This document shows, in pieces, positions 2,018 to 36,306 of a DNA stretch of 64,000 bases. Origin of the DNA: a phage. The first letter of the stretch is position 1, and the number at the start of each line of letters is the position of its first letter. Under the pieces are notes generated by a model that saw only the letters and a program-made list of their open reading frames with translations, was not told where the DNA came from and did no database searches. The stretch lies in the sequence record PV357171.2; one strand, 5' to 3'. Made by a program: the position numbers and the translations under genes.

Positions 2018-2557
2018 TTAACTGTTTAATTGGGCAACGTCTGGTATACTTCCTTTGAACATCTCCTGTATTGCAAAGTCACCATGAAATGTCCTTCTTA
2101 GTAAATTTGCATAATTTACGGCATCTTCTAATCCGCTATAGGGAAAGTACTTAGTAGTACCCCTTATCAGCCCCTGTTTATCATGTAATCTTACCATCCA
2201 CTTCTGAAGTTCTTTATGCCATGTAACATTTAGATAGCCTGATGATGCTCTTGAGATTCTGCCATTATGATTATTCTCTGTAATTGAAGCCTCTCTTAAA
2301 TTTGACCATCTATTATTTAGTTTATTCCTATCTATGTGGTCTACACATTCCTCTGGCCATCTATTCTCCATAATAACAAAAGCTACTTGATGTGCATAAG
2401 CTTTAAACCCTCGATACTTAAGCTGCCTATATCCCCTATTTAAAGTACCTGCTTCTTTACCCTTACGATTGCCTCTTTTCCAGGTAAAAACTCCGGTTTC
2501 GGGATCATAAGCAAATACTTCTTGTATTTCCTGTATGTTTAAATTATTCTTCATCAC
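2018..2557 (-). CDS. HNH homing endonuclease
   Basis: N-terminal YDPETGxFxW motif shared with three other ORFs in window; HxDxNxxNNRxxNL HNH core. Confidence 0.7.
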   Translation of the reverse strand: MMKNNLNIQEIQEVFAYDPETGVFTWKRGNRKGKEAGTLNRGYRQLKYRGFKAYAHQVAFVIMENRWPEECVDHIDRNKLNNRWSNLREASITENNHNGRISRASSGYLNVTWHKELQKWMVRLHDKQGLIRGTTKYFPYSGLEDAVNYANLLRRTFHGDFAIQEMFKGSIPDVAQLNS

Positions 2558-2789
2558 TCACCTTTGCCCGAAATCTCTTCCGCGACGCCCGAGATCCATC
2601 CGACCACTCCCGCTCAAACTCCGCACGTTTCTCGTCAAACTTCCGCTCCCTTTCCGCAATCTTCCGCTCCCTTTCCGCAATCTCCCGCGATACTTCCGCA
2701 GTATACTTACGATGCTTGTTAATAGCCGCAGTCATTCCGAAAACTCCCGCAAGTACCCCGATAATAAAAGCAATTATAATACTAAACAT
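2544..2789 (-). CDS. small membrane protein (81 aa), N-terminal TM helix then highly charged ER/K-rich tail
   Basis: Hydrophobic segment FSIIIAFIIGVLAGVFGMTAA; charged repeat REIAERERKIAERERK; overlaps neighbours (coupled chain). Confidence 0.5.
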   Translation of the reverse strand: MFSIIIAFIIGVLAGVFGMTAAINKHRKYTAEVSREIAERERKIAERERKFDEKRAEFEREWSDGSRASRKRFRAKVSDEE

Positions 2790-2976
2790 CTAATTCCCTC
2801 TCAATTTGCAGAATACGGGTACTATCACAACGTTGGAGTTCTACTAATTTTTCTAGAGCAAATTGTTGTTGTTTTACCTGAGCTTCTAGAGTTTTTAGGC
2901 GAACATACGCGTTATAAGAAACAATGAAAGTTGCCCAGACTAGTATTACTATTAGTGTAGCTACTACTTCCATCAT
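2782..2976 (-). CDS. small single-pass membrane protein (64 aa), paralog family MEW/MEV-TM-coiled coil
   Basis: TM segment VVATLIVILVWATFIV followed by coiled-coil-like tail; ATGA overlap with upstream ORF. Confidence 0.5.
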   Translation of the reverse strand: MMEVVATLIVILVWATFIVSYNAYVRLKTLEAQVKQQQFALEKLVELQRCDSTRILQIERELDV

Positions 2977-3080
2977 TTACGTTTCTCCGTTAGTAAAGTT
3001 TCAATTCTAGCTAAGTGATTATCTAAAATACATTGCCCAATAATCATAATTCCCAGTAATGAAATAATTACCCATTCCAT
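2973..3080 (-). CDS. small single-pass membrane protein (35 aa), paralog not in ORF track
   Basis: Hand translation: MEWVIISLLGIMIIGQCILDNHLARIETLLTEKRK; TAATG overlap at 5' end and ATGA overlap at 3' end; DNA-level repeat with the adjacent paralog. Confidence 0.4.
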   Translation of the reverse strand: MEWVIISLLGIMIIGQCILDNHLARIETLLTEKRK

Positions 3081-3235
3081 TATTTACGCTCCTCTAATAA
3101 AGTTTCAATTCTAGATAACCTATTACTCAACTGCATTAATTTAACCTCTACTTGGGTTACAGAGGTATCTATTACACGTAAGCCTACAAAGAGAAGTATC
3201 AGTAGGATGAATATGCCAATAATTACCCATTCCAT
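3080..3235 (-). CDS. small single-pass membrane protein (about 51 aa from internal ATG of track ORF 3080..3265)
   Basis: MEWVIIGIFILLILLFVG TM then ...RIETLLEERK tail; start ATG shares one base with upstream stop. Confidence 0.5.
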   Translation of the reverse strand: MEWVIIGIFILLILLFVGLRVIDTSVTQVEVKLMQLSNRLSRIETLLEERK

Positions 3236-3539: not shown

Positions 3540-3806
3540 TTACAAGTAATTAGATTGCTCTAGTTTAAATTTACAATCACCATATTTAAGGTCAAACTGA
3601 CTGAGATCCCACCATCCAAACTTAGTACGGAGCTGTACTACTGGAAAGCGATCTCCCTTAATACGAACTTTTTGAACCTTGAGACCGTAATGTTCTTCTC
3701 CCTCACCACCAAAAGATTTTACAAATCCAGTACAAAATGGTTTGGGAGCAGGTGCACAACCAGATAACATAACTGCGGCAACTAGTGTAATCACAAACTT
3801 TTTCAT
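3540..3806 (-). CDS. llp: lytic-conversion lipoprotein (Llp-like receptor-blocking lipoprotein)
   Basis: Signal peptide with lipobox LSGC; 88 aa; divergently transcribed from receptor-binding protein gene as in T5. Confidence 0.7.
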   Translation of the reverse strand: MKKFVITLVAAVMLSGCAPAPKPFCTGFVKSFGGEGEEHYGLKVQKVRIKGDRFPVVQLRTKFGWWDLSQFDLKYGDCKFKLEQSNYL

Positions 3807-3837
3807 ATTTATCTCTCCATTTCTAATTTATGAATAT

Positions 3838-3866
3838 ATTATAGCAAAATAGAGAGATGAAAGCAA
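3838..3866 (-). promoter_or_regulatory. sigma70-type early promoter for llp (TTGCTT-17-TATAAT on minus strand)
   Basis: Hexamers read from sequence; member of the T5 early promoter family. Confidence 0.6.
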
Positions 3867-3891: not shown

Positions 3892-5649
3892 ATGGGTTTT
3901 TTCGCTGGAAAATATAGCGATGGTAAGACCGTACTATCTTTAAATACTGAATCTGGTGGTGACATTAATCGTCACTATAGTCCAAATACCAATAGTATTT
4001 TTCATAGTGATATGCCATTTGTCCTAGTTGATGGTACTTATGAGTCTGGGTTAGGTGATGCCGGTAATGGGTTTTTTGTATGTCAGATGCCCTCTGACAT
4101 AATAAATATTAAATCCAATGACCCCGGTAGAGTTATATTAACTGCTATTGAGATTAATGGTACTCACAGAGCTTTTCTTAATGGTACTCAGAGTAAGGTG
4201 GGTCAAACTATAGTTGCCACTCAAGCAGATCCTTTTAGATCTTTTGCTAGTGTTTCCCAGACTAGTGGATTTGCATTTGGTAATAGCCTGGCATCTGGTA
4301 CATATAACTATAATCCATCTATAGGGCATGAAGAATCTATTTCTAGGAATGGTACAGGGGGTACTACCTTACATAGTACGTATCATGGTATAGTTAGGCC
4401 GGGTGCAGGAGCTCCAGTAGGTATTACTGTTGCAGAAGCTTTTGCACAGTTAGGATTCCCTACTAATAGTAGTACAGTACCTATAGATGGTAATAACCAA
4501 TATTACTGGGACCCAGGATGGATGTCTCCTTTAGGATCAGCACACAGAGGGCACGATTGGTTTTATGTTTGTAACTCTAACATACGTGGGTATGGTGGGG
4601 TAAGACAAGGTCTTCCTGGTAATGTAAATACTATGTATCATGATGGAGGTAACAGATTTGTTTGTAGGGGGTCTACAACTAATTTAGCTAACCAATCTGG
4701 TAACGCTACAATATTACAGGATTGGTATAACATAACCCCTACTAAAGTTATTTGGTATGTTCTGAATTTAAGATACTCAAATGGTGGTATGAGTATCTCT
4801 GGTAATCCTTTTACTGGTTCAGATATTCTTATATCTCCTTCTAATTTCATAATTAAAGGGGTTAGTCTTCCCAATACTGGATACAAGTTTATTAACCAGA
4901 ACGCTTTTGGTAACTTAGGTTATAGACCAGATATGGAGTATATAGGAAATAACGCAGCGTATACCGGGGTTTTTGGGGATACCACGGCAAGGTGTGAACT
5001 TGTAGGATCTAGTAATGGGGGTTTGTGGTCTCCTGTAGATTATGGAGGGGCTAAATCTCAAATTAGTATTTATAAATTCGGAGCTGGTAAGCAATGGTAT
5101 GTAAACTCTAGGGATAATACTATCGGTAATGAACACGGGGTTGTTTGGGGACCATCAGCAGTTCCATTACGACTTTTTGGTGGAAATGTAGGTAGCTCTT
5201 ACATGGGGGATGATATTACTCCCAGCTACCCGGGAACAGGGGATAGATACGTTGGTTTATCAACTATTGGGCTAGGTATACCGGGTGGCAATGCTACAGT
5301 AATTCTTACCACTGAAGTTATATCAGGTAACCTTAACTGTGCAGGTGTTCCTGCTAATACATGGAATAACGGTGTGTTTCAAGTGCAAGGAAGAAGAGCA
5401 TATAGCTATAGTAATGGAGATGCAATATTCCACCAGATTTTAACATTACCAGTAGGGTATTTAGTACCTTTTCATACTACATCTGCTTTTAGATACACAC
5501 CTAACAATGCCCTAAGTAGAAATAGTTTTATATACACTGCTAAAAATCTGGGGAATGGAAATGTAGAGTTAGGGGTAGTTATGCACGTAAGTTTAGGTAG
5601 TGCAGTTTTCCTACCGAGATTAAGAGTAACAGTTCAACGCCTTACCTAA
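3892..5649 (+). CDS. oad: receptor-binding tail protein (pb5/Oad-like)
   Basis: 585 aa; adjacent and divergent to llp; SD AGGAGA upstream; position before terminase as in T5. Confidence 0.6.
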
Positions 5650-5659
5650 AGGAGGAAAT

Positions 5660-6142
5660 ATGGCAAATGATGTATTAGTACCAGATCTTATGTCCCCTGA
5701 AGGGATGGATGTAATTGAAGCATATTTACAGTGTGGGAGTGATGTGCCTTCTGCCGCACGTAGTCTTGGAATGTCCGAAATTGCTTTTAGAGATATTATG
5801 AATCGTAGTGAAGTTAAGAACTACTTAAATGATATTTTTATGGAGAGTGGTTTCCGTAACAGAGATCGTTTATTTGGTGTTCTGGATGAAGTTATCAAGC
5901 GTAAACTAGAGGAACTAGAAGAAACTGGCATGGGTTCTGACCAAGATATTATGGATATTCTCTGGAAAGCACATAAAATGAAAATGGAAGAAATGAAAAT
6001 GATGGTAGAACTGGAGAAAGTTAAGGCAGCAGCCCGTACTCCAGCTAACCAGACCAACATCCAGAATAATATTATTGCTGGAGCTGGGGATCAAAACTAC
6101 ATGGACTTAATTACTTCCCTAGCTACTGGAGGTAAGAAGTAA
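5660..6142 (+). CDS. putative terminase small subunit
   Basis: 160 aa, HTH-like N-terminus, immediately upstream of and overlapping the large terminase start. Confidence 0.45.
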
Positions 6143-7458
6143 TGGAAGTATCAAGACCTTACGTTAATACAGTAGATGTTATTGATTTCGGAATAGATAA
6201 ACGTTTCTTTCGTCTACCTGTTTCGGGAATACTAGCACAAGAAGGTATTACACCTAATGGTCCTCAAATAGCGATTATTAATGCTCTAGAGGATCCTAGA
6301 CATCGTTTTGTAACGGCGTGTGTATCACGCCGTGTAGGTAAATCCTTCATCGCATATACTCTTGGGTTCCTAAAATTGCTGGAACCTAATGTGAAGGTGT
6401 TAGTAGTTGCTCCTAACTATTCACTGGCCAACATCGGATGGTCTCAGATTCGTGGTCTTATTAAAAAATATGGCCTACAAACTGAACGTGAGAACGCTAA
6501 AGATAAGGAAATTGAGTTAGCTAATGGTTCTCTGTTTAAACTAGCTTCCGCTGCTCAGGCTGACTCCGCAGTTGGACGTTCATATGATTTTATCATCTTT
6601 GACGAGGCGGCAATTTCCGATGTGGGTGGTGATGCCTTCAGGGTTCAGCTGCGTCCTACCCTAGATAAACCTAATTCTAAGGCTCTATTTATTTCCACCC
6701 CTCGTGGAGGTAACTGGTTTAAAGAGTTTTACGCCTACGGATTTGATGATACGTTGCCTAACTGGGTATCTATTCATGGTACATATCGTGATAACCCTCG
6801 TGCTGACCTGAATGATATAGAAGAAGCACGTCGTACGGTTAGTAAAAACTACTTCCGCCAGGAATATGAAGCTGACTTCTCTGTATTTGAAGGTCAGATT
6901 TTTGATACTTTCAATGCTATTGACCATGTTAAAGACCTTAAGGGTATGCGTCATTTCTTTAAAGATGATGAAGCATTCGAAACGTTGCTTGGTATCGACG
7001 TTGGTTATCGTGATCCTACAGCAGTTCTTACTATTAAGTATCATTACGATACGGATACTTACTATGTATTAGAAGAGTACCAGCAGGCGGAGAAAACTAC
7101 AGCTCAGCATGCTGCTTACATTCAGCACTGTATAGATCGTTATAAAGTTGATCGTATTTTTGTTGACTCCGCGGCAGCTCAGTTCCGTCAAGACTTAGCT
7201 TATGAGCATGAAATTGCATCAGCTCCAGCTAAAAAATCTGTCCTAGATGGCCTAGCATGCCTGCAAGCACTGTTCCAACAGGGTAAGATTATTGTAGATG
7301 CCTCATGCTCCTCCTTAATTCATGCACTGCAGAACTATAAGTGGGATTTCCAAGAAGGTGAAGAAAAATTATCCCGTGAAAAACCACGTCATGATGCTAA
7401 CTCTCACCTTTGTGATGCGCTGCGCTACGGAATTTACTCTATTTCCCGTGGTAAATAA
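6142..7458 (+). CDS. terminase large subunit
   Basis: 438 aa; Walker A-like VSRRVGKS, ATPase plus nuclease domain layout; length as I recall for T5 TerL. Confidence 0.85.
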   Translation: MEVSRPYVNTVDVIDFGIDKRFFRLPVSGILAQEGITPNGPQIAIINALEDPRHRFVTACVSRRVGKSFIAYTLGFLKLLEPNVKVLVVAPNYSLANIGWSQIRGLIKKYGLQTERENAKDKEIELANGSLFKLASAAQADSAVGRSYDFIIFDEAAISDVGGDAFRVQLRPTLDKPNSKALFISTPRGGNWFKEFYAYGFDDTLPNWVSIHGTYRDNPRADLNDIEEARRTVSKNYFRQEYEADFSVFEGQIFDTFNAIDHVKDLKGMRHFFKDDEAFETLLGIDVGYRDPTAVLTIKYHYDTDTYYVLEEYQQAEKTTAQHAAYIQHCIDRYKVDRIFVDSAAAQFRQDLAYEHEIASAPAKKSVLDGLACLQALFQQGKIIVDASCSSLIHALQNYKWDFQEGEEKLSREKPRHDANSHLCDALRYGIYSISRGK

Positions 7459-7629: not shown

Positions 7630-8268
7630 ATGGGTCGACAAAAGCTAACAATAAAAGATATAAATACTAGATTAGCTGATCGTGGAATCCAAATTGTCGG
7701 TGAATATGTAAACCAGCGTACAAAAACAGTATTTAGATGCCAGAGAGCACACGTTTGGGAAGCAACACCACATTCTGTACTTCATATGAGGAGAGGTTGT
7801 CCACACTGCTCCAATAATACAATATCGTTAGATGAAGTTAGTAACAGAATATCTAATATAGGGTATACTCTGTTAAGCAGCTATACTAATGCTAAAACAA
7901 AACTACATCTACGTTGCAATAATGGGCATGACTGTTTCATTACCCTAGATGGATTGACTCAAGGTAAAAGATGTCCTTATTGTTCTCTTAAATGGGAAAA
8001 TGGCGGATTCCTCTATATCATGTCCTCCTGCAGAGGTACTAAAGTAGGCATAAGCTTATACCCTGAGAAGCGGCTGAACGAGGTTAAAAGAGAATCTGGA
8101 TTTTCTGACATATACTTGTTCACCGTGTATTATCTGCCGGATAGAGAGACTGCTTTAGATTTAGAGAAGGAAGTTCACAGAAAATATTATAATAAAAACT
8201 GTGGGTTTTCTAATTTTACAGGAAGTACGGAATTTTTTAATGTTGCTCCTGAAGATGCTTTCAAATAG
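7630..8268 (+). CDS. putative homing endonuclease, T5orf172/GIY-YIG-like domain with duplicated N-terminal zinc-ribbon modules
   Basis: Two repeats ending CPHC and CPYC; C-terminal GGFLYIM...GTKVGIS...R...E pattern; inserted between terminase and portal. Confidence 0.6.
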   Translation: MGRQKLTIKDINTRLADRGIQIVGEYVNQRTKTVFRCQRAHVWEATPHSVLHMRRGCPHCSNNTISLDEVSNRISNIGYTLLSSYTNAKTKLHLRCNNGHDCFITLDGLTQGKRCPYCSLKWENGGFLYIMSSCRGTKVGISLYPEKRLNEVKRESGFSDIYLFTVYYLPDRETALDLEKEVHRKYYNKNCGFSNFTGSTEFFNVAPEDAFK

Positions 8269-8494
8269 GGAAGCATTCTACAAGAAATATGAGCATGAGT
8301 TAGTTAGGGACGTGGTAACATTGTGCCAGCACCATCACCAATTATTACATAAGGTTTACACAAAAGAACCTCCTTTATTTTCTGCTAATAAGCAAAAAGT
8401 GTGGGTTCAAAAGCAGAAAGACAAATTACAGAATCCTCAAGAAAAGACACAAGTCAAGACTGAAACAAAATCAGGATTCGCAAGGTTCTTATAA
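8255..8494 (+). CDS. hypothetical small protein with His-rich HNH-like motif (LCQHHHQLLH)
   Basis: Track ORF 8201..8494, start trimmed to internal ATG; stop overlaps portal ATG (TAATG). Confidence 0.3.
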   Translation: MLSNREAFYKKYEHELVRDVVTLCQHHHQLLHKVYTKEPPLFSANKQKVWVQKQKDKLQNPQEKTQVKTETKSGFARFL

Positions 8495-9594
8495 TGGGTT
8501 TTAAAAGCTGGATTACTGAAAAGCTAAATCCGGGTCAACGTATTATAAGAGACATGGAACCAGTTAGTCATCGCACTAACCGTAAGCCTTTTACCACTGG
8601 ACAAGCCTACAGTAAAATTGAGATTCTCAATAGAACTGCTAATATGGTTATAGATAGTGCGGCGGAGTGTTCTTATACTACTCTCTTAAATGTACGACCT
8701 AATCCATTCATGGATATAAGCACATTCCGTAGACTTGTAGTCACTGACCTACTTTTTGAAGGTTGTGCATACATCTATTGGGATGGCACATCGCTTTACC
8801 ATGTCCCTGCTGCACTGATGCAAGTAGAGGCAGATGCCAATAAGTTTATCAAAAAATTTATATTTAATAACCAGATAGACTATCGCGTAGATGAGATTAT
8901 CTTTATAAAAGATAACAGTTACGTGTGTGGCACAAATTCTCAAATTTCTGGACAATCTCGCGTTGCTACTGTTATTGACTCTCTTGAGAAGCGTTCTAAG
9001 ATGCTTAACTTTAAAGAGAAATTCCTCGATAACGGAACTGTGATTGGTCTTATTCTTGAGACGGATGAAATCCTGAACAAGAAATTGCGTGAGCGTAAAC
9101 AAGAAGAATTACAACTAGATTATAATCCTAGTACTGGTCAGTCCTCTGTCCTGATAGACTTTAAGGAAGACATCGAAGGATTTAATAAATCCATCTGTCT
9201 AGCCTTTGGTGTTCCGCAAGTGCTACTTGATGGCGGTAATAATGCGAACATTCGACCAAACATCGAATTGTTCTACTATATGACTATCATTCCTATGCTG
9301 AACAAGCTGACTAGTTCTCTTACTTTCTTTTTTGGTTATAAGATTACTCCTAATACTAAGGAAGTAGCTGCATTAACACCAGATAAAGAAGCTGAGGCTA
9401 AACATTTAACCTCATTGGTTAATAATGGTATTATGACTGGTAACGAGGCTCGTTTAGAGCTGAACCTTGAACCTTTAGATGATGAGCAGATGAATAAGAT
9501 TCGTATTCCTGCTAACGTTGCTGGTTCTGCAACAGGTGTATCTGGTCAAGAAGGTGGTAGACCTCAAGGTTCCACCGAGGGAGATAAAGAATGA
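8494..9594 (+). CDS. portal protein
   Basis: 366 aa; position between terminase and prohead protease; translationally coupled to neighbours. Confidence 0.65.
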   Translation: MGFKSWITEKLNPGQRIIRDMEPVSHRTNRKPFTTGQAYSKIEILNRTANMVIDSAAECSYTTLLNVRPNPFMDISTFRRLVVTDLLFEGCAYIYWDGTSLYHVPAALMQVEADANKFIKKFIFNNQIDYRVDEIIFIKDNSYVCGTNSQISGQSRVATVIDSLEKRSKMLNFKEKFLDNGTVIGLILETDEILNKKLRERKQEELQLDYNPSTGQSSVLIDFKEDIEGFNKSICLAFGVPQVLLDGGNNANIRPNIELFYYMTIIPMLNKLTSSLTFFFGYKITPNTKEVAALTPDKEAEAKHLTSLVNNGIMTGNEARLELNLEPLDDEQMNKIRIPANVAGSATGVSGQEGGRPQGSTEGDKE

Positions 9595-10085
9595 TTGATT
9601 ATAATGGTCTAAAGACCATTTTTGGTGAAAAACTGCCAGAATCTCATATCTTCTTTGCTACGGTTGCTGCGCATAAATATGTTCCTAGCTATGCTTTTCT
9701 GCGTAGAGAACTAGGGCTTTCATCTGCGCATACTAACCGTAAAGTATGGAAGAAATTTGTAGAGGCTTATGGTGAAGCAGTTCCTCCGGCCCCACCGGCC
9801 CCACCATTAACTCTTTCTAAAGATTTAACTGCTAGCATGTCAGTTGAAGAGGGAGCAGCATTAACACTTTCTGTTACTGCAACTGGTGGTACTGGTCCAT
9901 ATACTTATGCATGGACTAAAGATGGTTCTCCTATTCCGGATGCTTCAGGAGCTACCTATACTAAACCTACAGCAGCAGCTGAGGATGCCGGCTCTTATAA
10001 AGTAACTGTAACAGATAGTAAGCAAGTAAGTAAGGATTCTACTGCATGTGCTGTGACAGTTAATCCTACTGTTCCTGGAGGCTAA
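9591..10085 (+). CDS. capsid decoration protein with C-terminal Ig-like domain (pb10-like)
   Basis: 164 aa; PPAPPAPP linker then Ig-like segment YTYAWTKDG...SYKVTVTD. Confidence 0.55.
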   Translation: MIDYNGLKTIFGEKLPESHIFFATVAAHKYVPSYAFLRRELGLSSAHTNRKVWKKFVEAYGEAVPPAPPAPPLTLSKDLTASMSVEEGAALTLSVTATGGTGPYTYAWTKDGSPIPDASGATYTKPTAAAEDAGSYKVTVTDSKQVSKDSTACAVTVNPTVPGG

Positions 10086-10088
10086 TAA

Positions 10089-10721
10089 ATGACACAAGCT
10101 GCTATTGACTATAACAAGTTAAAATCAGCACCCGTTCATTTAGATGCTTATATTAAATCTATTGATAGCGAATCCAAAGAGGGCGTTGTAAAAATCCGTG
10201 GATTCGCTAATACAATTAGTAAAGATCGCGCTGGTGATGTAATTCCTGCTTCTGCGTGGAAAACATCTAATGCACTTGCTAACTATATGAAAAACCCGAT
10301 TATTCTTTTCGGACACGATCATCGTCGTCCAATCGGCAAGTGTATTGATCTTAACCCTACTGAAATGGGTCTCGAAATCGAATGCGAGATCTATGAAAGT
10401 TCTGACCCGGCTATCTTTTCTCTAATTAAAAACGGTGTACTGAAAACTTTTAGTATCGGATTCCGCTGCCTAGATGCAGAGTGGGATGAAGCTACTGATA
10501 TATTTATTATTAAAGATTTAGAACTATACGAAGTTTCGGTAGTTTCTGTACCTTGTAATCAGGACTCAACGTTCAATCTCGCTAAGAGTATGAATGGTCA
10601 TGATTATACTGAATGGCGTAAATCTTTTACTGCAATAAGTTCTAAAGCTGTCCCAGCTCAAGAACGTAATCTTTCTGAACTAGAAAAACTTGCGATAGCT
10701 TTAGGCTACGTTAAAGAATAA
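10089..10721 (+). CDS. prohead maturation protease (HK97 family)
   Basis: 210 aa; position before major capsid gene; conserved His-containing segment FGHDHRRPIG. Confidence 0.7.
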   Translation: MTQAAIDYNKLKSAPVHLDAYIKSIDSESKEGVVKIRGFANTISKDRAGDVIPASAWKTSNALANYMKNPIILFGHDHRRPIGKCIDLNPTEMGLEIECEIYESSDPAIFSLIKNGVLKTFSIGFRCLDAEWDEATDIFIIKDLELYEVSVVSVPCNQDSTFNLAKSMNGHDYTEWRKSFTAISSKAVPAQERNLSELEKLAIALGYVKE

Positions 10722-10738: not shown

Positions 10739-11296
10739 ATGACTATTGATATTAATAAGCTGAAAGAAGAACTTGGTCTGGGTGATCTGGCTAAATCTCT
10801 GGAAGGTCTGACCGCTGCTCAGAAAGCTCAGGAAGCTGAACGTATGCGTAAAGAGCAGGAAGAAAAAGAACTGGCTCGTATGAATGACTTGGTTTCTAAA
10901 GCAGTTGGCGAAGATCGTCAGAAACTGGAACAAGCTCTGGAACTGGTTAAGTCCCTGGATGAAAAATCTAAGAAGAGCGCAGAACTGTTTGCACAGACTG
11001 TAGAAAAGCAGCAGGAAACTATTGTTGGTCTCCAGGACGAAATCAAATCTCTGCTGGCAGCTCGTGAAGGGCGTTCCTTCGTCGGTGATAGTGTGGCTAA
11101 AGCACTGTACGGTACTCAAGAAAACTTTGAAGACGAAGTGGAGAAACTGGTTCTTCTGTCCTACGTGATGGAAAAAGGTGTATTTGATACCGAACATGGT
11201 CAGAGACACTTGAAAGCTGTAAACCAGTCTTCTTCTGTAGAAGTTTCTAGTGAAAGCTATGAAACTATTTTCTCCCAGCGTATCATCCGTGACTGA
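10739..11296 (+). CDS. major capsid protein, N-terminal scaffolding (delta) domain; frame terminates early
   Basis: Coiled-coil-rich 185 aa; followed in +1 frame by HK97-fold body. Confidence 0.7.
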   Translation: MTIDINKLKEELGLGDLAKSLEGLTAAQKAQEAERMRKEQEEKELARMNDLVSKAVGEDRQKLEQALELVKSLDEKSKKSAELFAQTVEKQQETIVGLQDEIKSLLAAREGRSFVGDSVAKALYGTQENFEDEVEKLVLLSYVMEKGVFDTEHGQRHLKAVNQSSSVEVSSESYETIFSQRIIRD

Positions 11297-11972
11297 GGTT
11301 AAAGGTGCTCTGACTGAAATCCACTTCAGTACTTACAAACTGGCTGCTAAGTCCTTCATTACTGATGAAACTGAAGAAGATGCAATCTTCTCCCTGCTGC
11401 CGCTGCTGCGTAAACGTCTGATTGAAGCACACGCTGTTTCTATCGAAGAAGCGTTTATGACTGGTGATGGTACTGGTAAACCTAAAGGTCTATTGACTCT
11501 TGCTAGCGAAGATGGTGCTAAAGTTACTACTGAAGCTAAAGCTGATGGTTCTGTTCTGGTAACTGCTAAGACTATCTCTAAACTGCGTCGTAAACTGGGC
11601 CGTCATGGTTTGAAACTGTCCAAACTGGTACTGATTGTATCTATGGATGCTTACTACGATCTGCTGGAAGATGAAGAATGGCAGGATGTTGCTCAAGTTG
11701 GTAATGATGCTGTTAAACTGCAGGGTCAGGTTGGTCGTATTTATGGTCTGCCGGTTGTAGTTTCTGAATACTTCCCAGCTAAAGCGGTTGATAAAGAGTT
11801 CGCAGTTATTGTTTATAAAGATAACTTCGTAATGCCACGTCAGCGTGCTGTTACTGTTGAACGTGAGCGTCAAGCTGGTAAACAGCGTGATGCATACTAC
11901 GTTACTCAGCGTGTTAACCTGCAACGTTACTTTAGTAATGGCGTTGTATCTGGTGCTTACGCTGCATCTTAA
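11250..11972 (+). CDS. major capsid protein, HK97-fold body (in +1 frame relative to delta domain)
   Basis: 240 aa; strong terminator downstream; continuation of capsid gene. Confidence 0.7.
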   Translation: MKAMKLFSPSVSSVTEVKGALTEIHFSTYKLAAKSFITDETEEDAIFSLLPLLRKRLIEAHAVSIEEAFMTGDGTGKPKGLLTLASEDGAKVTTEAKADGSVLVTAKTISKLRRKLGRHGLKLSKLVLIVSMDAYYDLLEDEEWQDVAQVGNDAVKLQGQVGRIYGLPVVVSEYFPAKAVDKEFAVIVYKDNFVMPRQRAVTVERERQAGKQRDAYYVTQRVNLQRYFSNGVVSGAYAAS

Positions 11973-17042: not shown

Positions 17043-20000
17043 ATGACTGATAAGCTAATACGAGAATTACTAATAGACGTTAAACAGAAGGGGGCAACCC
17101 GTACTGCAAAGTCTATTGAAAACGTATCTGATGCATTAGAGAACGCTGCTGCTGCTTCTGAACTAACAAATGAACAGTTAGGTAAAATGCCCAAAACTCT
17201 ATACTCCATTGAGAGGGCAGCAGATAGAGCAGCGAAAAGTCTTACTAAAATGCAAGCTAGCAGAGGTATGCTTAGTATTACTAAATCTATTAATGATATA
17301 GGAGCTAAGTTAGATGATCTCGCTATTACAATGATTGAAGTAGCAGATAAATTAGAAATCGGATTTGATGGAGTTTCTAGATCTGTTAAAACAATGGGCA
17401 ATGATGTTGCAGCTGCAACAGAGAAAGTTCAAGATAGGCTGTATGATACTAATAGAGCCTTAGGTGGTACAGCTAGAGGTTTTAATGATACTACTGGTGC
17501 CGCTGGTAGAGCTTCTAGAGCTATCGGTAATACCTCTGGCTCAGCACGCGGTGCAACTCGTGATTTCGCGGCAATGGCTAAGATAGGGGGTGGTTTACCT
17601 ATCCTGTATGCTGCAATTGCATCTAATATATTTGTTCTTCAGTCCGCTTTTGAGGGCCTAAAAGTAGGTGATCAATTAAACAGACTGGAACATTTTGGCA
17701 CTATCGTTGGGACTATAACGGGTACACCAGTACAGACGTTAGCTCTGGCACTACAAAACGCTACTAACGGTGCTGTATCCTTTGAAGAAGCTATGAGACA
17801 AGCGTCTTCTGCTTCAGCTTATGGATTTGATAGTAAACAATTAGAACAGTTCGGACTAGTAGCCCGTCGTGCTGCTGCTGTTCTTGGTGTTGACATGACC
17901 GACGCACTTAACCGTGTAATTAAAGGCGTATCTAAGCAAGAAATAGAACTTCTAGACGAACTTGGTGTTACTATTCGCCTTAACGATGCGTATGCAAATT
18001 ATGTTAAACAGCTAAATGCTACCAGTACAGGCATTAAATATACTGTAGATAGCCTGACTACCTACCAGAGACAACAAGCATATGCAAATGAAGTTATAGC
18101 AGAATCTACTAGACGTTTCGGATACCTAGATGATGCTCTTAAGTCAACTTCTTGGGAGCTATTTGCTGCTAATGCTAACTCTGCCCTAAGAAGCCTACAA
18201 CAAAGCGCAGCAACATACTTAACCCCTGTTGTAGACACCATCAATGCTTTCTTATATCAAACTAAATCTTCTCAGATGAGGATTTCCGCAATGGCACGCA
18301 GTGCCTCTGCTAAAACCACTCCTACTGAAAATGTTACGGCTCTCATAGAAAACGCTGTAGGTGCACAAGAAGATCTAGATACTTACCTTAAAGAAAGTGA
18401 TGCTCGTGTTAAGAAAGCTCAAGAGATTAAACAGCAGTTAGATGATCTCAAGGCAAAACAAGCTGTTACTGCTCCAGTAGCTAACGCACTTACTGCTGTG
18501 GGCATTGGAGGCGATGAAAGTAATAAATTAGTAGTACAACTTACTAATGAACTGGCTCGTCAAAACCAAGAAATAGCAGAACGCGCTAAAACCGAAAAAG
18601 TTCTCAAACAAGCAGTGGAAGATACTGGGCAAGCCTTACTGCGTAATAGTAATCTAGCTAAGCAATTAGGAGCCAATATGCAGTATGCTGCCACTGCTAT
18701 TCCTGGAGAGACCGGGGTATTTAAGATTGATCCTAATAATCTTAAAGCGGCTGCAGAGGTACAGAAGAACTATGACCAGCTAAAGAAAAGCTCTAGTGAT
18801 ACTGCAAATAATATAAAAATGGCAGCTACTAACATTACCACTGCCAAAAAAGCATCAGGTGACTTAGTTAGCATTATAAAAGCAGTAGGAGATACTGCTA
18901 AGGTAACAGGGCAAAATACAGATACTCTAGTTAAAAATCTGAATCTAGGCTTTGAAAATCTAGATCAAATGAAGGCTGCGCAGAAAGGTCTATCAGAATA
19001 TGTAACTGCTATGGATAAGAATGAGCAGAATGCACTGGAAGTAGCTAAACGTAAAGACGAGGTTTATAACCAGACTAAAGACAAAGCTAAAGCGGAGGCA
19101 GCAGCTAGAGAGGTGCTACTACGTCAGCAACAGGAACAGCTCACAGCAGCAAAAGCACTACTGGCTGTTAATCCAAACGATCCAGAGGCTCTAAAGCAGG
19201 TAGCTAAGATAGAAACAGAGATTCTTAATACTAAAGCTCAGGGATTTGAGAACGCTAAGAAAACTAAAGATCTGACAGATAAAATTCTTGGTGTAGATCG
19301 TGAGATAGCTCTCCTGAATGACCGCACTATGACGAGTACTCAGTATCGTCTAGCACAATTAAGGCTAGAGCTACAATTAGAGCAGGAAAAAACGGAATTA
19401 TATTCTAAACAAGCGGATGGCCAAGCTAAAGCAGAACAGTCTAGACGTGCCCAAGCACAAATAAGTAGAGAACTGTGGGAAGCAGAGAAACAAGCTACTG
19501 CCTCGCATGTGTCAGCTCTCATGGATGCCTTAGAAGTTAACCAAACTCAGAGAAATGTCACTGGTCAATCCCAGATTCTTACTGAAAGGTTATCCATTCT
19601 GCAACAACAGCTGGAGTTGTCTAAAGGTAATACTGAAGAAGAAATTAAATATCGTAATGAGATTTATAAAACTTCAGCAGCCTTAGAACAGCTTAAAAAG
19701 CAAAGAGAGAGTCAGATGCAGCAACAGGTAGGATCTTCATTAGGTGCTGTGTACACTCCTACAACTGGTCTATCTGGGGCAGATAAAGATTTTGCTGATA
19801 TGCAGAATAAGATGGCTTCTTATGACCAGGCTATTTCTAAGCTGTCTGAGTTAAATTCCGAAGCAACAGCTGTAGGTCAAAGCCTTGGTAATTTAACTAA
19901 TGCTATGATTCATTTCTCACGGGGATCTCTAGATACTACGTCTATGATTGCGGCAGGTATGCAAGCTGTATCTTCCGTAATTCAGTATAGTACTAGCCAG

Positions 20001-20702
20001 CAGGTAAGTGCTATTGATGCAGCTATTGCAGCAGAGCAAAAACGTGATGGTAAATCCGAGGAGTCTAAAGCTAAACTCAAGAAACTGGAAGCGGAAAAGG
20101 TTAAGATCCAGCAGGATGCAGCTAAGAAGCAAATCATTATTCAGACGGCAGTAGCAGTAATGCAAGCGGCAACAGCTGTACCATACCCGTTCTCTATTCC
20201 TTTGATGGTGGCGGCAGGTTTGGCAGGTGCGTTGTCTCTTGCTCAAGCATCTTCTGCATCGAGTATGTCAAGTATTGCTGATTCTGGAGCGGATACAACA
20301 AGTTATTTAACCTTAGGAGAGCGTCAAAAGAATATAGATGTGTCCATGTCTGCTAATGCAGGTGAACTATCTTATATCCGAGGCGATAAAGGAATAGGCG
20401 GTGCTAACTCTTTCGTTCCTCGTGCTGAGGGTGGTAATATGTACCCAGGGGTTAGTTACCAAATGGGTGAACATGGTACAGAAGTAGTTACCCCTATGGT
20501 TCCTATGAAAGCTACACCTAATGATGAGCTAAAAACCTCATCTAACTCAACTTCAGGAAGACCTATCATCTTGAATATTAGTGCTATGGATGCTGCAAGT
20601 TTCAGAGAGTTTGCTTCTAGTAATAGTAGTGCTCTAAGAGACGCAGTAGAATTAGCTCTGAATGAGAACGGTGCTAGTCTGAAAACATTAGGAAATTCTT
20701 AA
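17043..20702 (+). CDS. tail tape measure protein (pb2-like)
   Basis: 1219 aa, long coiled-coil/Ala-rich, C-terminal hydrophobic segment and peptidase-like end. Confidence 0.85.
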   Translation: MTDKLIRELLIDVKQKGATRTAKSIENVSDALENAAAASELTNEQLGKMPKTLYSIERAADRAAKSLTKMQASRGMLSITKSINDIGAKLDDLAITMIEVADKLEIGFDGVSRSVKTMGNDVAAATEKVQDRLYDTNRALGGTARGFNDTTGAAGRASRAIGNTSGSARGATRDFAAMAKIGGGLPILYAAIASNIFVLQSAFEGLKVGDQLNRLEHFGTIVGTITGTPVQTLALALQNATNGAVSFEEAMRQASSASAYGFDSKQLEQFGLVARRAAAVLGVDMTDALNRVIKGVSKQEIELLDELGVTIRLNDAYANYVKQLNATSTGIKYTVDSLTTYQRQQAYANEVIAESTRRFGYLDDALKSTSWELFAANANSALRSLQQSAATYLTPVVDTINAFLYQTKSSQMRISAMARSASAKTTPTENVTALIENAVGAQEDLDTYLKESDARVKKAQEIKQQLDDLKAKQAVTAPVANALTAVGIGGDESNKLVVQLTNELARQNQEIAERAKTEKVLKQAVEDTGQALLRNSNLAKQLGANMQYAATAIPGETGVFKIDPNNLKAAAEVQKNYDQLKKSSSDTANNIKMAATNITTAKKASGDLVSIIKAVGDTAKVTGQNTDTLVKNLNLGFENLDQMKAAQKGLSEYVTAMDKNEQNALEVAKRKDEVYNQTKDKAKAEAAAREVLLRQQQEQLTAAKALLAVNPNDPEALKQVAKIETEILNTKAQGFENAKKTKDLTDKILGVDREIALLNDRTMTSTQYRLAQLRLELQLEQEKTELYSKQADGQAKAEQSRRAQAQISRELWEAEKQATASHVSALMDALEVNQTQRNVTGQSQILTERLSILQQQLELSKGNTEEEIKYRNEIYKTSAALEQLKKQRESQMQQQVGSSLGAVYTPTTGLSGADKDFADMQNKMASYDQAISKLSELNSEATAVGQSLGNLTNAMIHFSRGSLDTTSMIAAGMQAVSSVIQYSTSQQVSAIDAAIAAEQKRDGKSEESKAKLKKLEAEKVKIQQDAAKKQIIIQTAVAVMQAATAVPYPFSIPLMVAAGLAGALSLAQASSASSMSSIADSGADTTSYLTLGERQKNIDVSMSANAGELSYIRGDKGIGGANSFVPRAEGGNMYPGVSYQMGEHGTEVVTPMVPMKATPNDELKTSSNSTSGRPIILNISAMDAASFREFASSNSSALRDAVELALNENGASLKTLGNS

Positions 20703-26332: not shown

Positions 26333-26755
26333 ATGAGTACTGAAAATAGAGTTATAGACTTAGTAATAGATGAGAAAGTACCATATGGTTTAATGATGCA
26401 GTTCTTAGATGTTGATGATAGTACTTATCCACCTACAAGTACCCCTGTTAACTTAACTGGGTATTCTCTAAGGGGTACTATAAAAAATAGCCTAGATGAG
26501 AATGCGGAGATATTGGCATCCTTTACTACTAATATTATTGATGCTGCTCAAGGGGCTGTAGCTATAAGTTTACCAGTAGAATCTGTGGAGAATATAGGAG
26601 CTAAAGCATCTAAAGATAGAGATAAATATAATCCTCGTCAGCGATTCGCAGGATACTATGATATAATTATGACTAGAGATGTTATAGGATCTGCAATTAG
26701 CTCCTTTCGTATAATGGAGGGTAAAGTATTTATCAGTGATGGGGTAACTAAATAA
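26333..26755 (+). CDS. collar protein (p132-like)
   Basis: 140 aa; synteny before L-shaped fibre gene. Confidence 0.5.
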
Positions 26756-29103
26756 TGGCAGTAACTACTAAGATTATTGTACAACAGATACTAAATATTG
26801 ATGATACTAAAGCTACTGCTAGTAAATTTCCTAGATATACAGTAACTCTTGGTAACTCTATTAGCTCTATTACTGCAAGTGAGTTAGTATCATCTATTGA
26901 GGCCGCAGCTAAGTCTGCTGCAGCTGCAAAAGACTCTGAAATAGCTGCTAAGACTTCAGAGCTTAATGCTAAGAACTCTGAACAGGAAGCTGCTATTTCT
27001 GCTGGAGCTTCTGAAGCCTCTGCCACTCAGTCCGCTACATCTGCTACTCAATCTGCAGAATCAGCGGATAGATCTGCAGAATCAGCCGCAGCAGCTAAAG
27101 TATCAGAGACTAATGCGAAAGCTAGTGAAACTAAAGCTAAAACATCCGAGACTAATGCAAAAGCCTCAGAAACTAATGCAAAGTCTAGTGAAACCAAAGC
27201 TAAAACCTCGGAAACTAATGCTAAAACTAGTGAAACCAACGCTGCTGCTTCCGCTGCTGCTGCAAAAATTAGTGAGACTAATGCTAAGACTAGTGAGACT
27301 AATGCTGCTGAGTCTGCTGCGTCTGCTGCCGATTCTAAAGGTTTTAGGGATGAAGCAGAAACATTTGCTGCACAAGCGGCTGCCTCTGCTGCGGCTGCTA
27401 AAGTATCCGAGACTAAGGCAAAAACATCAGAAACTAATGCAAAGTCTAGCGAAACTAAAGCTAAGGCTAGTGAAACAAATGCTGCTAGTTCTGCAACTTC
27501 AGCTAGTCAATCAGTAACCACTATTCAAGGTCTAAAATCTGACGTTGAGGAATTAAAATCTGATACTCAAACCATAAAGAATAGTGCTGTAACTGAGACA
27601 ACAGCTTTAAAAAATCAAGCGGCTACTTCTGCAACTAATGCTGCTGCATCTGCTACTGAAGCGGGAAAACAAGCTACTAATGCTGCTAATAGTGCTAATA
27701 GTGCTAAAACTGAGGCTGACCGTTCAAAAACTGAAGCTGATCGTGCTAAAGCTGAGGCAGATAGATCTGAAGCCGCTATTAATGATACTCCTGAGCTGCA
27801 GCCGTTACCTGATGTATGGATACCTTTTAATGACTCCTTAGATATGATTACCGGCTTCTCACCTAGCTATAAAAAGATTATAATTGGTGACGATGAAATT
27901 ACAATGCCTGGTGACAAGATTGTTAAGTTTAAACGTGCATCAACTGCGACATATATTAATAAATCCGGCGTTTTCACTGTTGCGGGAATTGATGAACCAC
28001 GTTTTGAACGTGATGGTCTGCTTATTGAGGGGCAAAGAACAAACTATATTCTTAACTCCCTTACTGTTTCTAAATGGGGTGCATCTTCGTGGTTGACAAT
28101 CTCATCAAGCGGAGTTGATAGCTTTGGTTTTACATATGGCCGATTTGATGTTCAGTCTAGTAATGTTGGAAGCACAACATCCGGTAATATTGCTGTGGCT
28201 CCTTCACCAAGAGCTTTTGACGTTACTGGTGATGAGAAGTATTGCACTATATCTTGCCGATGCAAATGTGAATCAGACATAGATATTCGATGCAGACTCC
28301 GATTTGAGAACTACGACGGGACTGCCACATCCTTCATTGGCGATGCGTACATGAATATGCAGACTTTAGATATAACAACTACAGGTGGAGCAGCAGGTAG
28401 AATTACAGCTAAAGCGGTCAAGGATAATGCTACAGGATGGATATTTTTTGAAGCGACAATAAAAGCACTAGATACCGAAAATATGATTGGTGGCCAAGTT
28501 CAGATAGCACCATCTCAAAGAGTTGGATCTTTTGCAGATGGCGATCATATTATTGTTGCAACGCCGCAATTTGAAGGTGGGGCGACTGCATCGTCATTCA
28601 TCATATCTGATACAGTTGCAGCGACAAGGGCTAGCGATATGGTGACAGTGCCAATTAAAAACAATCTTTATAGCTTACCTTTTACGGTTCTTTGTGAGGT
28701 ACATAAGAATTGGTACAAAACACCGAATGCAGCACCGCGAGTTTTTGATACTGCAGGTCATCAAACTGGAGCAGCAATCATTCTTGGATTTGGTTCTTCA
28801 ACAAATTACGATGGGTTTCCATATTGCGATATTGGTGGGTCTAACCGACGTGTTAACGAAAACGCATCGCTTGAAAAAATGGTTATGGGGATGCGTGTGA
28901 AAGAAGATCAGATGACATGTGCGATAAGTAATGGGCGTATATCTAGTGAGACAAAGACAACTTGGACTTATATTCAAAGCTCTGCAACCATTCGTATAGG
29001 TGGTCAGACAACAACAGGGCAGCGTCATTTATTCGGGCATGTCAGAAATTTTCGAGTATGGCATAAAGCATTGACTGACCGTGAATTGAAGGAGTCGGTA
29101 TGA
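26755..29103 (+). CDS. L-shaped tail fibre protein A (LtfA-like), heptad-repeat shaft and C-terminal ConA/LamG-like lectin domain
   Basis: N-terminus resembles T5 pb1; SETNAK-type repeats; C-terminal motif FGHVRNFRVWHKALTDRELKE. Confidence 0.65.
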   Translation: MAVTTKIIVQQILNIDDTKATASKFPRYTVTLGNSISSITASELVSSIEAAAKSAAAAKDSEIAAKTSELNAKNSEQEAAISAGASEASATQSATSATQSAESADRSAESAAAAKVSETNAKASETKAKTSETNAKASETNAKSSETKAKTSETNAKTSETNAAASAAAAKISETNAKTSETNAAESAASAADSKGFRDEAETFAAQAAASAAAAKVSETKAKTSETNAKSSETKAKASETNAASSATSASQSVTTIQGLKSDVEELKSDTQTIKNSAVTETTALKNQAATSATNAAASATEAGKQATNAANSANSAKTEADRSKTEADRAKAEADRSEAAINDTPELQPLPDVWIPFNDSLDMITGFSPSYKKIIIGDDEITMPGDKIVKFKRASTATYINKSGVFTVAGIDEPRFERDGLLIEGQRTNYILNSLTVSKWGASSWLTISSSGVDSFGFTYGRFDVQSSNVGSTTSGNIAVAPSPRAFDVTGDEKYCTISCRCKCESDIDIRCRLRFENYDGTATSFIGDAYMNMQTLDITTTGGAAGRITAKAVKDNATGWIFFEATIKALDTENMIGGQVQIAPSQRVGSFADGDHIIVATPQFEGGATASSFIISDTVAATRASDMVTVPIKNNLYSLPFTVLCEVHKNWYKTPNAAPRVFDTAGHQTGAAIILGFGSSTNYDGFPYCDIGGSNRRVNENASLEKMVMGMRVKEDQMTCAISNGRISSETKTTWTYIQSSATIRIGGQTTTGQRHLFGHVRNFRVWHKALTDRELKESV
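27040..27490 (+). repeat. in-frame tandem repeats (about 21 bp units, SETNAK/SETKAK) inside LtfA gene
   Basis: Visible periodicity in protein and DNA. Confidence 0.7.
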
Positions 29104-29375
29104 AAGACTTAACTATGAAATTTAAGGACAAGAAAGCATTTGAGGATTTTCTTGTGGTTATTGATTGGGAAGGTAATGAAACTTTGCAAAATCAAATAAT
29201 ACTTGATGTTATCGGATATACTTATACACAAACTGGTGGCTCAGAGGAAGAGCCCATATATACCCAGAATGGGGGATATTATGTGAACGTAAGGGTTATT
29301 GATGATTCAATTGACTTCACTCAATACAGTGATCATAGTGTTATTCTTGAACAGTCTCTTAGAGAGTGGGCATAA
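29100..29375 (+). CDS. hypothetical protein (91 aa) between the two fibre genes
   Basis: ATGA overlap with LtfA stop. Confidence 0.4.
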   Translation: MKDLTMKFKDKKAFEDFLVVIDWEGNETLQNQIILDVIGYTYTQTGGSEEEPIYTQNGGYYVNVRVIDDSIDFTQYSDHSVILEQSLREWA

Positions 29376-29493
29376 GGTTTTATAATGGTAACTAAAACAG
29401 TAATTCCTACGGATATTACAAAACTTAAAAATGAGTCACTTAATAAAAATAATAACCTGAGTGACTTAGCAGACCGTGCAGCAGCCTGGCTAA

Positions 29494-31128
29494 ATGTGCG
29501 TCCTATTGGGTCCACCCCTCTTGCGGGGGATCCTGTTGGGGGACTATGATGCCGCAACTAAACGTTGGGTAGAGAATAAGATTAACACTGGTACAGTTGG
29601 ACCCACTATGAATGGTGTTATGAACTACGGTGTTGGTGATTTCCACCTTCGAGATAGCCGTGCATACATTCAACCATACGAGGTGGTTTCTGATGGGCAG
29701 CTCCTTAATAGGGCTGACTGGCCGGAGCTTTGGTCTTACGCTCAAATGGTGGGGGCAATTAGTGATGCAAAATGGTTAGCAGATCCACATGAGAGAGGCA
29801 AATACTCAGTTGGTGATGGTCGAACAACCTTCCGTGTTCCTGATCGAAATGGTGTTCAATCTGGCTCCTTTAAAGGTCTTTTTGGACGTGGTGATAGTGG
29901 GGTAACTTCTAACCTCGGTAGAACGAATGAGTCTTCTGCTCCTAACTTAACTGCCTACTTCAGAACCGTAACTGATACGTCAATTATTGAAAATGATGCT
30001 GCAAGTGGTGCTGGATACCCATCCGAGGCATACCAAAAATATGCTCGGCTAAGCGCTATTAAAGAAGAGGCTGCACTAGAAATATACCCACGTAGATGGA
30101 ACTTTGATGCTTCTCGCCAATCTAGTGTATATGGGCGTTATGGTAATACAGATGAGATTACACCTAATAACTTCACCGGTGTATGGGTAATCCGGGCGTC
30201 TGGTGGTTTCGTTGCAGCAAATACATCTTGGAGTGTTATTAACGGCGATGCGACCAGACCAACAGACAGCACAAGAGTTGAATCAGGGAAAGTAAGCGTA
30301 GAATATAAGATTGGAACGGCTATTGAGGCGCAGGGTAAAGTCTATACTGCTGCAACAATGGGCGGGACATATTCTACCCAGCTCTCTGTTAAAAATGCCA
30401 CTACGGGTAAAGAGAAAGATATCAGCGTCACAGAAGATGGTGATCTGTGGTCTGACCGCTTTAAGGGTAGATTTGGCACCCGTATGGCTTGGAGTCAGAC
30501 CGGCTGGGTCTATGGCACATTTTCCCAAGCCAACCAAGCCATCGGTAACGACTACAGTTTCTACAGTATTCTTAGCGGCTCCCAAAGTTCAAGCTCGGGC
30601 TATAAAACTCATACCCATATTGGTCAAATCCATAATGACAATGGTTCATTTGCTGATAGCTGCTGGCATGTTGCAGGTGATGATGATAATAAATATGGTG
30701 TACGTTTAAAAATTCAGCCTAATAATAATAGTATTTATTTCTATTCTTGGTGGCCTAATGGTGCAGCAACCTATACTTTGCAATTAAATGCTATATCTGA
30801 TTCTCGCTTAAAGCATGATATTAAGGCTATAGATGCAACTAAATCCATCGAAATATTAAAAGGATTGGAATTCCAATCCTTTGTATATAATAACGATGAA
30901 AAATCTCGTATCCGACGTGGGGTTATTGCTCAGCAAGTAGAGACTATAGAACCACTTTATGTAAAAACTAGAAGATTTTATAATAATGATGGGGTAGAGC
31001 AAGAACAGAAGGAATTAGATACGACTCCAATGCTTCTTGACACTATGCATGTCGTGCAAGAACTTATAAAACGGATTGAATCTTTGGAAGAAGAACTCAA
31101 GCAATTAAGAGCAAACCTAGTGCAATAA
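29494..31128 (+). CDS. L-shaped tail fibre protein B (LtfB-like) with C-terminal intramolecular chaperone (peptidase S74-type) domain
   Basis: C-terminal SDSRLKHDIK...coiled-coil chaperone signature; start codon assignment uncertain. Confidence 0.6.
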   Translation: MCVLLGPPLLRGILLGDYDAATKRWVENKINTGTVGPTMNGVMNYGVGDFHLRDSRAYIQPYEVVSDGQLLNRADWPELWSYAQMVGAISDAKWLADPHERGKYSVGDGRTTFRVPDRNGVQSGSFKGLFGRGDSGVTSNLGRTNESSAPNLTAYFRTVTDTSIIENDAASGAGYPSEAYQKYARLSAIKEEAALEIYPRRWNFDASRQSSVYGRYGNTDEITPNNFTGVWVIRASGGFVAANTSWSVINGDATRPTDSTRVESGKVSVEYKIGTAIEAQGKVYTAATMGGTYSTQLSVKNATTGKEKDISVTEDGDLWSDRFKGRFGTRMAWSQTGWVYGTFSQANQAIGNDYSFYSILSGSQSSSSGYKTHTHIGQIHNDNGSFADSCWHVAGDDDNKYGVRLKIQPNNNSIYFYSWWPNGAATYTLQLNAISDSRLKHDIKAIDATKSIEILKGLEFQSFVYNNDEKSRIRRGVIAQQVETIEPLYVKTRRFYNNDGVEQEQKELDTTPMLLDTMHVVQELIKRIESLEEELKQLRANLVQ

Positions 31129-32988: not shown

Positions 32989-33479
32989 TATTCCTCTGGG
33001 AAATTTAATACTGCGAAATCTCCGAAGTATTCTTTTGCTTTAATATCATAGGCTTTTGCCGCAATTTCTTCAGTTGGGTAGCTACCAATATACTCAGTTT
33101 TTCTGCTGAAAGGATTGCCAATTCTAGCGATATAGCTCCTACCATTAAAATGGACTCCTCTAACTGTATTTGGGCTAGACCTATTAGCCATATTCTGGGA
33201 TCTAGAACAGTCTCTCAGATTTTCTATTCTATTATTACTAACATCTCTATCTATATGGTCTATTTCCTTTGGCCAATAATTATTGAACATAAAAAATATC
33301 AGTCTATGAACATACTCTTGCCTCTGGAACAAAGTAACCCTTAGATACCCGGCCTTATTAGGAGTACCTGCAGGTACTCCTGCCTTCATCCTACCCCTAG
33401 TCTGCTTATTTATTAGCAGTCCATCCCTATAATTATATCTATTCCAAAGGTATTCTACAGTAACTCTTGGATCAGCCAT
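32988..33479 (-). CDS. HNH homing endonuclease with C-terminal AP2-like DNA-binding domain
   Basis: HIDRDVSNNRIENL HNH core; C-terminal ...EEIAAKAYD... AP2-like. Confidence 0.7.
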   Translation of the reverse strand: MADPRVTVEYLWNRYNYRDGLLINKQTRGRMKAGVPAGTPNKAGYLRVTLFQRQEYVHRLIFFMFNNYWPKEIDHIDRDVSNNRIENLRDCSRSQNMANRSSPNTVRGVHFNGRSYIARIGNPFSRKTEYIGSYPTEEIAAKAYDIKAKEYFGDFAVLNFPEE

Positions 33480-36279: not shown

Positions 36280-36282
36280 TGG

Positions 36283-36306
36283 TTAAAAAGAAAGGGGCCG
36301 AAGCCC
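36283..36306 (-). terminator. stem-loop GGGGC-CGAA-GCCCC with U-tract on minus strand
   Basis: Read from sequence. Confidence 0.6.

Follow-up and report, generated by a model that had tools for sequence, protein, structure and literature searches.

Phages with separate scaffolding genes exist, and P22 (gp8) and lambda (Nu3) are examples. HK97 gp5 and T5 pb8, unlike these, carry a fused delta domain. The closest described relatives of the capsid gene analysed here are T5 pb8 and the DT57C major head protein (PDB 5TJT, 6OMC, 8ZVI, 8HO3; PF05065), i.e., HK97-fold precursors of the T5 type, in which a single polypeptide of about 458 aa contains the delta domain (residues 1-159) followed by the N-arm, E-loop, P and A domains. 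The mature protein comprises residues 160-458, the delta domain ending at residue 159 (PDB 5TJT), and within it the N-arm has been placed at residues 164-191, the first P-domain strand at 192-205 and the E-loop at 206-244 (PMC11313276).

The window, by which we mean the whole 64,000 nt (64 kb) stretch of DNA that was analysed, is a T5-like siphovirus genome (Tequintavirus) with T5 gene order, and its first 25 kb and its 32-57 kb portion share 91-95% identity with hundreds of GenBank phage records. By homology and synteny its capsid gene is the same gene as pb8, in the same place after the S78 prohead protease: the order of genes from the portal through pb10, the S78 protease and the capsid to head completion is that of DT57C, KS_S14 and ten other contigs, at 92-95% nucleotide identity. 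What is not found is the single polypeptide. The first-pass annotation had described two overlapping ORFs in different frames, the second in the +1 frame, sharing 47 nt, and this layout is exactly as it was described (Table 1). The upstream ORF corresponds to pb8 residues 1-185 (94.6% identity to residues 1-185 of KS_S14 pb8), thus encoding the delta/scaffolding domain (residues 1-159) plus the N-terminal 26 residues of mature pb8 before it crosses the excision junction and ends at an out-of-frame TGA. The downstream ORF opens with 14 codons that are an out-of-frame read-through of N-arm coding sequence, and only from codon 15 (E) does it encode authentic pb8, residues 234-458. In agreement with this, positions 61-274 of the 280 in the Pfam Phage_capsid profile match its residues 15-231 (E=2e-19), and profile positions 1-60 are missing.

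It had also been claimed that the break falls at the scaffold/shell junction, which is not the case: the delta domain ends at residue 159 and the break comes after residue 185, 26 residues inside the mature protein. The accompanying claim that sequence is missing around the N-arm and E-loop proved right, since codons 186-232 are absent and with them the end of the N-arm, the first P-domain strand and 27 of the 39 E-loop residues. Likewise, the two ORFs combined (about 410 codons) are indeed short of the 458-aa precursor, and this holds for pb8 of both T5 and DT57C. Compared with these two proteins, the window is 92-95% identical at the nucleotide level on both sides of the gap and its delta domain is intact, but the gene is frameshifted and is not a functional member of the group as written; going by the known fold, a pb8 that lacks the end of the N-arm, this strand and part of the E-loop, and is frameshifted besides, cannot be a working HK97-fold shell subunit. 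The likeness to phages that encode their scaffold separately is superficial and limited to the succession of a scaffold-like and a shell ORF: here it is the mature shell protein itself that is split, and the cause is missing DNA, not gene architecture.

Table 1. Features of the capsid region of the window, and limits of the simulated and observed gaps at the four affected loci (last four rows, EC100 coordinates)
Feature	Position	Strand	Remarks
T5orf172/MUG113-type homing endonuclease gene	7630..8268	+	3' truncated, 212 aa vs 224 aa
Gap 1, ~237 nt, homing-endonuclease/sciA genes	junction 8256..8258	+	
Nicking endonuclease gene sciA remnant	8255..8494	+	residues 67-145 only
Portal (pb7) gene	8494..9594	+	366 aa vs 403-405 aa elsewhere; two in-frame excisions
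Gap 2, portal, 60 nt	8679/8680	+	residues 63-82, wing domain, including Lys77
Gap 3, portal, 57 nt	~9155	+	residues 241-259, clip domain
Decoration protein pb10	9591..10085	+	intact
Prohead protease (Peptidase_S78 in relatives)	10089..10721	+	intact, 99.5% identical to KS_S14
Upstream capsid ORF	10739..11296	+	185 aa; 5' part of major capsid (pb8) gene; stop TGA 11294-11296
Downstream capsid ORF	11250..11972	+	240 aa, GTG start; 3' part of pb8 gene, +1 frame
Gap 4, capsid excision junction GTGAC/TGAGG	11293..11294	+	143 nt missing
Locus 1, sciA			simulated 3603-3845; window 3609-3845; SP1a/SP3/Stp1 3793-3829
Locus 2, portal			simulated 4268-4327; window 4268-4327; SP1a/SP3/Stp1 4268/9-4326
Locus 3, portal			simulated 4804-4863; window 4803-4859; SP1a/SP3/Stp1 4804-4859
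Locus 4, capsid			simulated 6990-7093; window 6990-7132; SP1a/SP3/Stp1 7024, 7023 or 7006 to 7093

The alignment to T5-like capsid genes that the first-pass annotation had suggested as a check gives a clear picture. Against the DT57C mhp gene (1377 nt) there is one uninterrupted gap of 143 columns after base 11293 and no other indel. In T5 the missing 143 nt run from CTGCAG to GGTGA and make up pb8 codons 186-232 plus 2 bases of codon 233. When T5's own 143 nt are put in at the junction, a single ORF of 458 codons is restored. The first-pass annotation had held that a one- or two-base correction restoring such an ORF would mark the break as an artefact; the ORF is indeed restored, but by 143 nt of T5 sequence and not by one or two bases. 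The segment is present in 14 of 14 relatives aligned base by base. In database searches, 1500 nt of the window aligned over 1643 nt in two pieces in all records listed (545 matched), and a 181-nt query across the junction spanned 324 nt in all records listed (164 matched). Neither exact nor degenerate patterns of the junction occurred in IMG/VR, in JGI metagenomes or in GTDB genomes, and a search of E. coli genomes and plasmids gave no match to this region of the window. Exact look-ups of four of its proteins (the capsid fragment, the portal, the tape measure and the tail tube) retrieved no record. Ten contigs encoding an identical head-completion protein have capsid proteins of 457-464 aa and portals of 403-405 aa; the 464-aa capsid protein, 6 aa beyond the usual 458, is encoded at 4547-5941 of a Logan contig from ERR14001087.

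These comparisons bear directly on whether the two ORFs could form a functional two-gene capsid module, in which a free scaffold (delta plus 26 aa) would be made alongside a shell protein started from GTG 11250 or ATG 11259. GTG 11250 is preceded, at 6 nt, by a weak AGAAG, and separate scaffolding genes have the precedents named above. Nevertheless, the start region, GTAGAAGTTTCTAGTGAAAGCTATGAAACT, belongs to the ordinary, conserved coding sequence of pb8: DT57C and five other aligned relatives have it without any change, and the rest have something close to it. The product, moreover, would be out of frame for its first 14 residues and would be missing residues 160-233, among them most of the E-loop. 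No other record among the matches listed, nor any of the ten contigs compared, has this layout, and neither a conserved slippery or restart signal nor a shared two-frame arrangement, as expected of a programmed frameshift or translational restart, was found. The restart at GTG 11250 that had been offered earlier as a less likely option is thus left with no support, and we give the two-gene module next to no credence.

The capsid gap is not alone. Four blunt gaps within 3 kb set the window apart from KS_S14, EC100 and a dozen other relatives. The first takes away the 3'-terminal 15 codons of a T5orf172-type homing endonuclease gene together with the first 66 codons, including the HNH motif, of the nicking endonuclease gene sciA. 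This homing endonuclease gene sits between terL and sciA and is found in only some relatives; a second gene of the T5orf172/MUG113 type, at 59303-59947 on the minus strand, shares 37.5% protein identity with it. The second and third gaps both fall in the portal gene, where the lost residues, Lys77 among them, belong to the wing and clip domains (PMC11313276). Since the loss of 60 and 57 nt keeps the reading frame, a gene caller reports a seemingly intact portal of 366 aa. Microhomology at the gap junctions amounts to 0-1 nt, on which ground repeat-mediated deletion and polymerase slippage were rejected. The DNA missing from the gaps was found nowhere else in the window, so relocation within it was rejected as well.

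Elsewhere in the window, about 65 other genes were compared; they align over all or nearly all of their length without a change of frame and are mostly 95-100% identical at the amino acid level. The remaining differences from relatives consist of mobile endonuclease genes present or absent and of divergent tail genes. The window has blocks of about 480 nt, at ~32989-33472 and 49790-50273, that phage JLBYU40 lacks, and at ~36279-36290 an HNH gene of JLBYU40 is absent from the window, with small HNH-like proteins matching nearby; these differences are the usual presence and absence of mobile endonucleases in T5-like phages. Three regions are divergent. The tape-measure protein (17043-20702) has 69% amino acid identity to KS_S14 and a central 1 kb that is barely alignable at the DNA level, and the L-shaped tail fibre genes (26755-31128; 51-66%) and the anaerobic ribonucleotide reductase (57466-59274; 60%) are, like the tape measure, far more divergent from their nearest records than the remaining genome.

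It could be argued that the deletions are real in the DNA and that the window is a defective T5-like genome, natural or engineered, with broken capsid, portal and nicking-endonuclease genes and in need of a helper or complementation. The sequence as given does carry the deletions, and three of the four length changes (237, 60 and 57) are multiples of three. The capsid lesion, however, is out of frame and takes out the E-loop, the portal loses parts of its wing and clip, and every other gene is pristine, which is at odds with decay. Moreover, the gap limits coincide with vector fragments, as set out below, and cultured isolates carry frameshifting versions of the same lesions (portal 58/59 and 56 nt). 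We consider a genome with real deletions very unlikely. Even slighter is the chance that the capsid junction as such exists in virion DNA, whether as the source of a free delta-domain scaffold and a shell protein without most of the E-loop, working or not, or as part of a helper-dependent defective genome.

The cultured isolates in question are the phages SP1a (MF774689.1), SP3 (MG387042.1 / RefSeq NC_048001.1) and Stp1 (KY775453.1), three Salmonella phage drafts that were found to be gapped at the window's four loci. Chicken gut samples from India are the source of all three, which have recorded hosts and share the same contig naming style; they are nevertheless different phages, with 89-96% identity among themselves and to the window over this region (89-94% to the window). 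Annotation of their portal and capsid genes is fragmentary or absent; in the SP1a draft contig, for instance, the portal is annotated piecemeal and the capsid gene is divided between two CDSs. SP3 was also the one short capsid match among the 32 loci retrieved by an IMG/VR scan with the capsid protein, and it is gapped at all four loci. The gaps in these records measure 37 nt, 58-59 nt, 56 nt, and 70, 71 or 88 nt. The limits of the portal gaps lie within 1-2 nt of the window's, but these gaps are out of frame whereas the window's are in frame, and the gaps in the nicking-endonuclease (37 nt) and capsid (70-88 nt) genes are shorter than in the window. As the three are cultured isolates in which the gaps frameshift both portal and capsid, the gaps presumably cannot be present in viable phage DNA.

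The intact relatives were drawn from the 25-30 matches listed per search among 442-545 matching records, plus about 45 fetched loci. Apart from SP1a, SP3 and Stp1, all relatives among the matches listed or analysed are intact at the four loci; the lesions thus recur in unrelated submissions and are absent from the properly finished genomes covered. The first-pass annotation had supposed that an identical two-frame structure in independent isolates would speak against an error. Related lesions do occur in the three drafts, yet they do not have that effect: their capsid limits differ from the window's (70, 71 and 88 nt vs 143) and follow similarity to T5, which supports the reading as an artefact.

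A source for the missing pieces was found outside the phages. When the intact EC100 region was searched against PLSDB, exactly one plasmid matched, pCfFELIX689.1 (NZ_CP137704.1), and it did so in four pieces. This plasmid of 6348 bp, from a Citrobacter freundii assembly, carries Tn9 catA1, ermC, a bla fragment starting at its PstI site, and polylinkers. It is listed as a natural C. freundii isolate plasmid and is in fact an engineered shuttle-type vector; the region of note is 2380-3130, and the stretch derived from T5 bears the annotation of a hypothetical protein. In phage orientation, its cassette contains both ends of gap 1; exactly the 60 nt of gap 2, with 82 nt of foreign polylinker inserted at an SspI site; a short linker whose last bases, AAGATC, correspond to the end of gap 3 as far as a filled-in BglII site; and 155 nt of the capsid gene, from a blunted T5 PstI site to a T5 SacI site. 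The phage-like pieces are 98.5-100% identical to T5 (155/155 nt for the capsid piece) and end at T5 PstI, SacI, XbaI and BglII sites. All T5-like content of the plasmid maps to gaps 1, 2 and 4, with the gap 3 end (AAGATC) kept. The missing spans therefore coincide with cloning-vector sequence for gaps 1, 2 and 4 and for the end of gap 3, and a comparison of the window itself with pCfFELIX689.1 gave no residual match. In the KS_S14 copy of the region (5 kb), all three XbaI sites and its one PstI site lie at gap ends. Restriction in vivo had been considered on account of this clustering of XbaI and PstI sites, which is explained by cloned restriction fragments instead.

The vector family appears to be the pJRD series of Davison and colleagues (Gene papers, 1984-87). 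The "restriction-site bank" of these vectors was, we presume, assembled from small T5 restriction fragments. The restriction-site-bank vectors include pJRD158/184/215 and the Elhai-Wolk pRL derivatives, and pCfFELIX689.1 is the example whose cassette carries the T5 fragments missing from the window. Primers in PMC7930318 and bioRxiv 10.1101/2023.05.22.541798 identify the 82-nt polylinker as pJRD-Cm(r)/pRL vector sequence, and it serves as a priming site for a cassette in cyanobacterial vectors. The backing obtained here for a T5 origin of the pJRD bank consists of these primer matches and the 98.5-100% identity to T5. pCfFELIX689.1 is a vector and not a phage. It is a derivative without the interior of the gap 3 fragment and without 108 nt of gap 1, and it is the sole physical example of the cassette, so the ancestral bank is a reconstruction.

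To compare the observed limits with those of a vector screen, the four T5 fragments were run against intact relatives using blastn with VecScreen scoring (+1/-5, gap costs 3/3). The simulated matches, listed with the observed gaps in Table 1, agree with the limits seen in the window and in the three drafts; on its left side, gap 1 of the window deviates by about 3-6 nt from the simulated match. With a second capsid allele (locus L007), the match is 89 nt long and begins 16 nt into the fragment, in agreement with the 88-nt gap of Stp1. The capsid gap of the window starts at the PstI site, which is the start of the vector fragment, and ends at GGTGA, whose final base is the last one before the flanking sequence of the window diverges from T5. 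Its limits thus behave like the ends of local alignments against the T5 inserts of the vector. In the window as in SP1a, SP3 and Stp1, the limits lie at fragment ends or where identity to the insert stops.

A common fault of assembly or finishing that had nothing to do with a vector screen, such as the butt-joining of low-coverage stretches along a reference or a consensus that dropped uncovered positions, has in its favour the blunt junctions without microhomology, the clustering of four gaps in 3 kb, and the presence of gaps at the same loci in three low-quality drafts. It would leave unexplained, however, both the base-for-base coincidence with T5 restriction fragments of an engineered vector and the way in which the gap limits track T5 similarity under VecScreen scoring, and the remainder of the 64 kb is clean. 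We regard such an error as unlikely. The match to the vector fragments likewise goes unexplained in a defective genome and in a two-gene capsid, and this counts against each of the three. The earlier suggestion of an indel or assembly error was right in so far as the fault is an error at the level of the sequence, but not as to its kind, this being neither an indel of 1-2 bases nor a mis-assembly of reads but a blunt excision of 143 nt, one of four.

Several other candidates were considered and rejected. CTAG or another shared motif was dropped, CTAG being common outside the gaps, as was unusual GC content, the GC being ordinary. Adapter look-alikes yielded only chance matches of 8-9 nt (Nextera, Ion P1). 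T5 nick sites (no GCGC), intron-like GT-AG ends and host-read subtraction were all rejected by reasoning on the junction sequences. Literature searches on SP1a, on Stp1 and on T5 false positives in vector screens returned nothing useful.

The split in the capsid gene very probably stems from data cleaning and has no biological meaning. Given the gaps and their limits, the identity with the T5 inserts of a plasmid and the recurrence in three other records, it is very probably the scar left when spans flagged as vector were excised from a finished sequence and the ends joined. We infer the vector screen and the deliberate excision as the actual steps. The window would have started as a normal T5-like (Tequintavirus) genome. 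Vectors of the pJRD/pRL family would carry a restriction-site bank made from T5 fragments, so that a screen of the UniVec/VecScreen type would score strong internal matches on any T5-like genome, at four loci. A submitter or pipeline would then have cut the flagged spans after assembly and joined the ends. Excision of 143 nt within the capsid gene would remove codons 186-232 and shift the frame, resulting in the two overlapping ORFs.

The split gene is of no importance for capsid biology, but it matters for data quality. As an old family of vectors was apparently made from T5 DNA, strong but false "vector" matches would be expected in any T5-like genome at four fixed loci: once in the nicking endonuclease gene, twice in the portal gene and once in the capsid gene. 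At least three public records are damaged, and one of them, NC_048001.1, is the RefSeq exemplar of the species Tequintavirus SP3. In such records gene calling breaks up the portal and capsid genes or misses them, truncated proteins enter the protein clusters, and over-trimmed genomes yield false "novel" gene layouts in sequence scans. Conversely, the four loci can be used as a quick test for over-trimmed Tequintavirus genomes.
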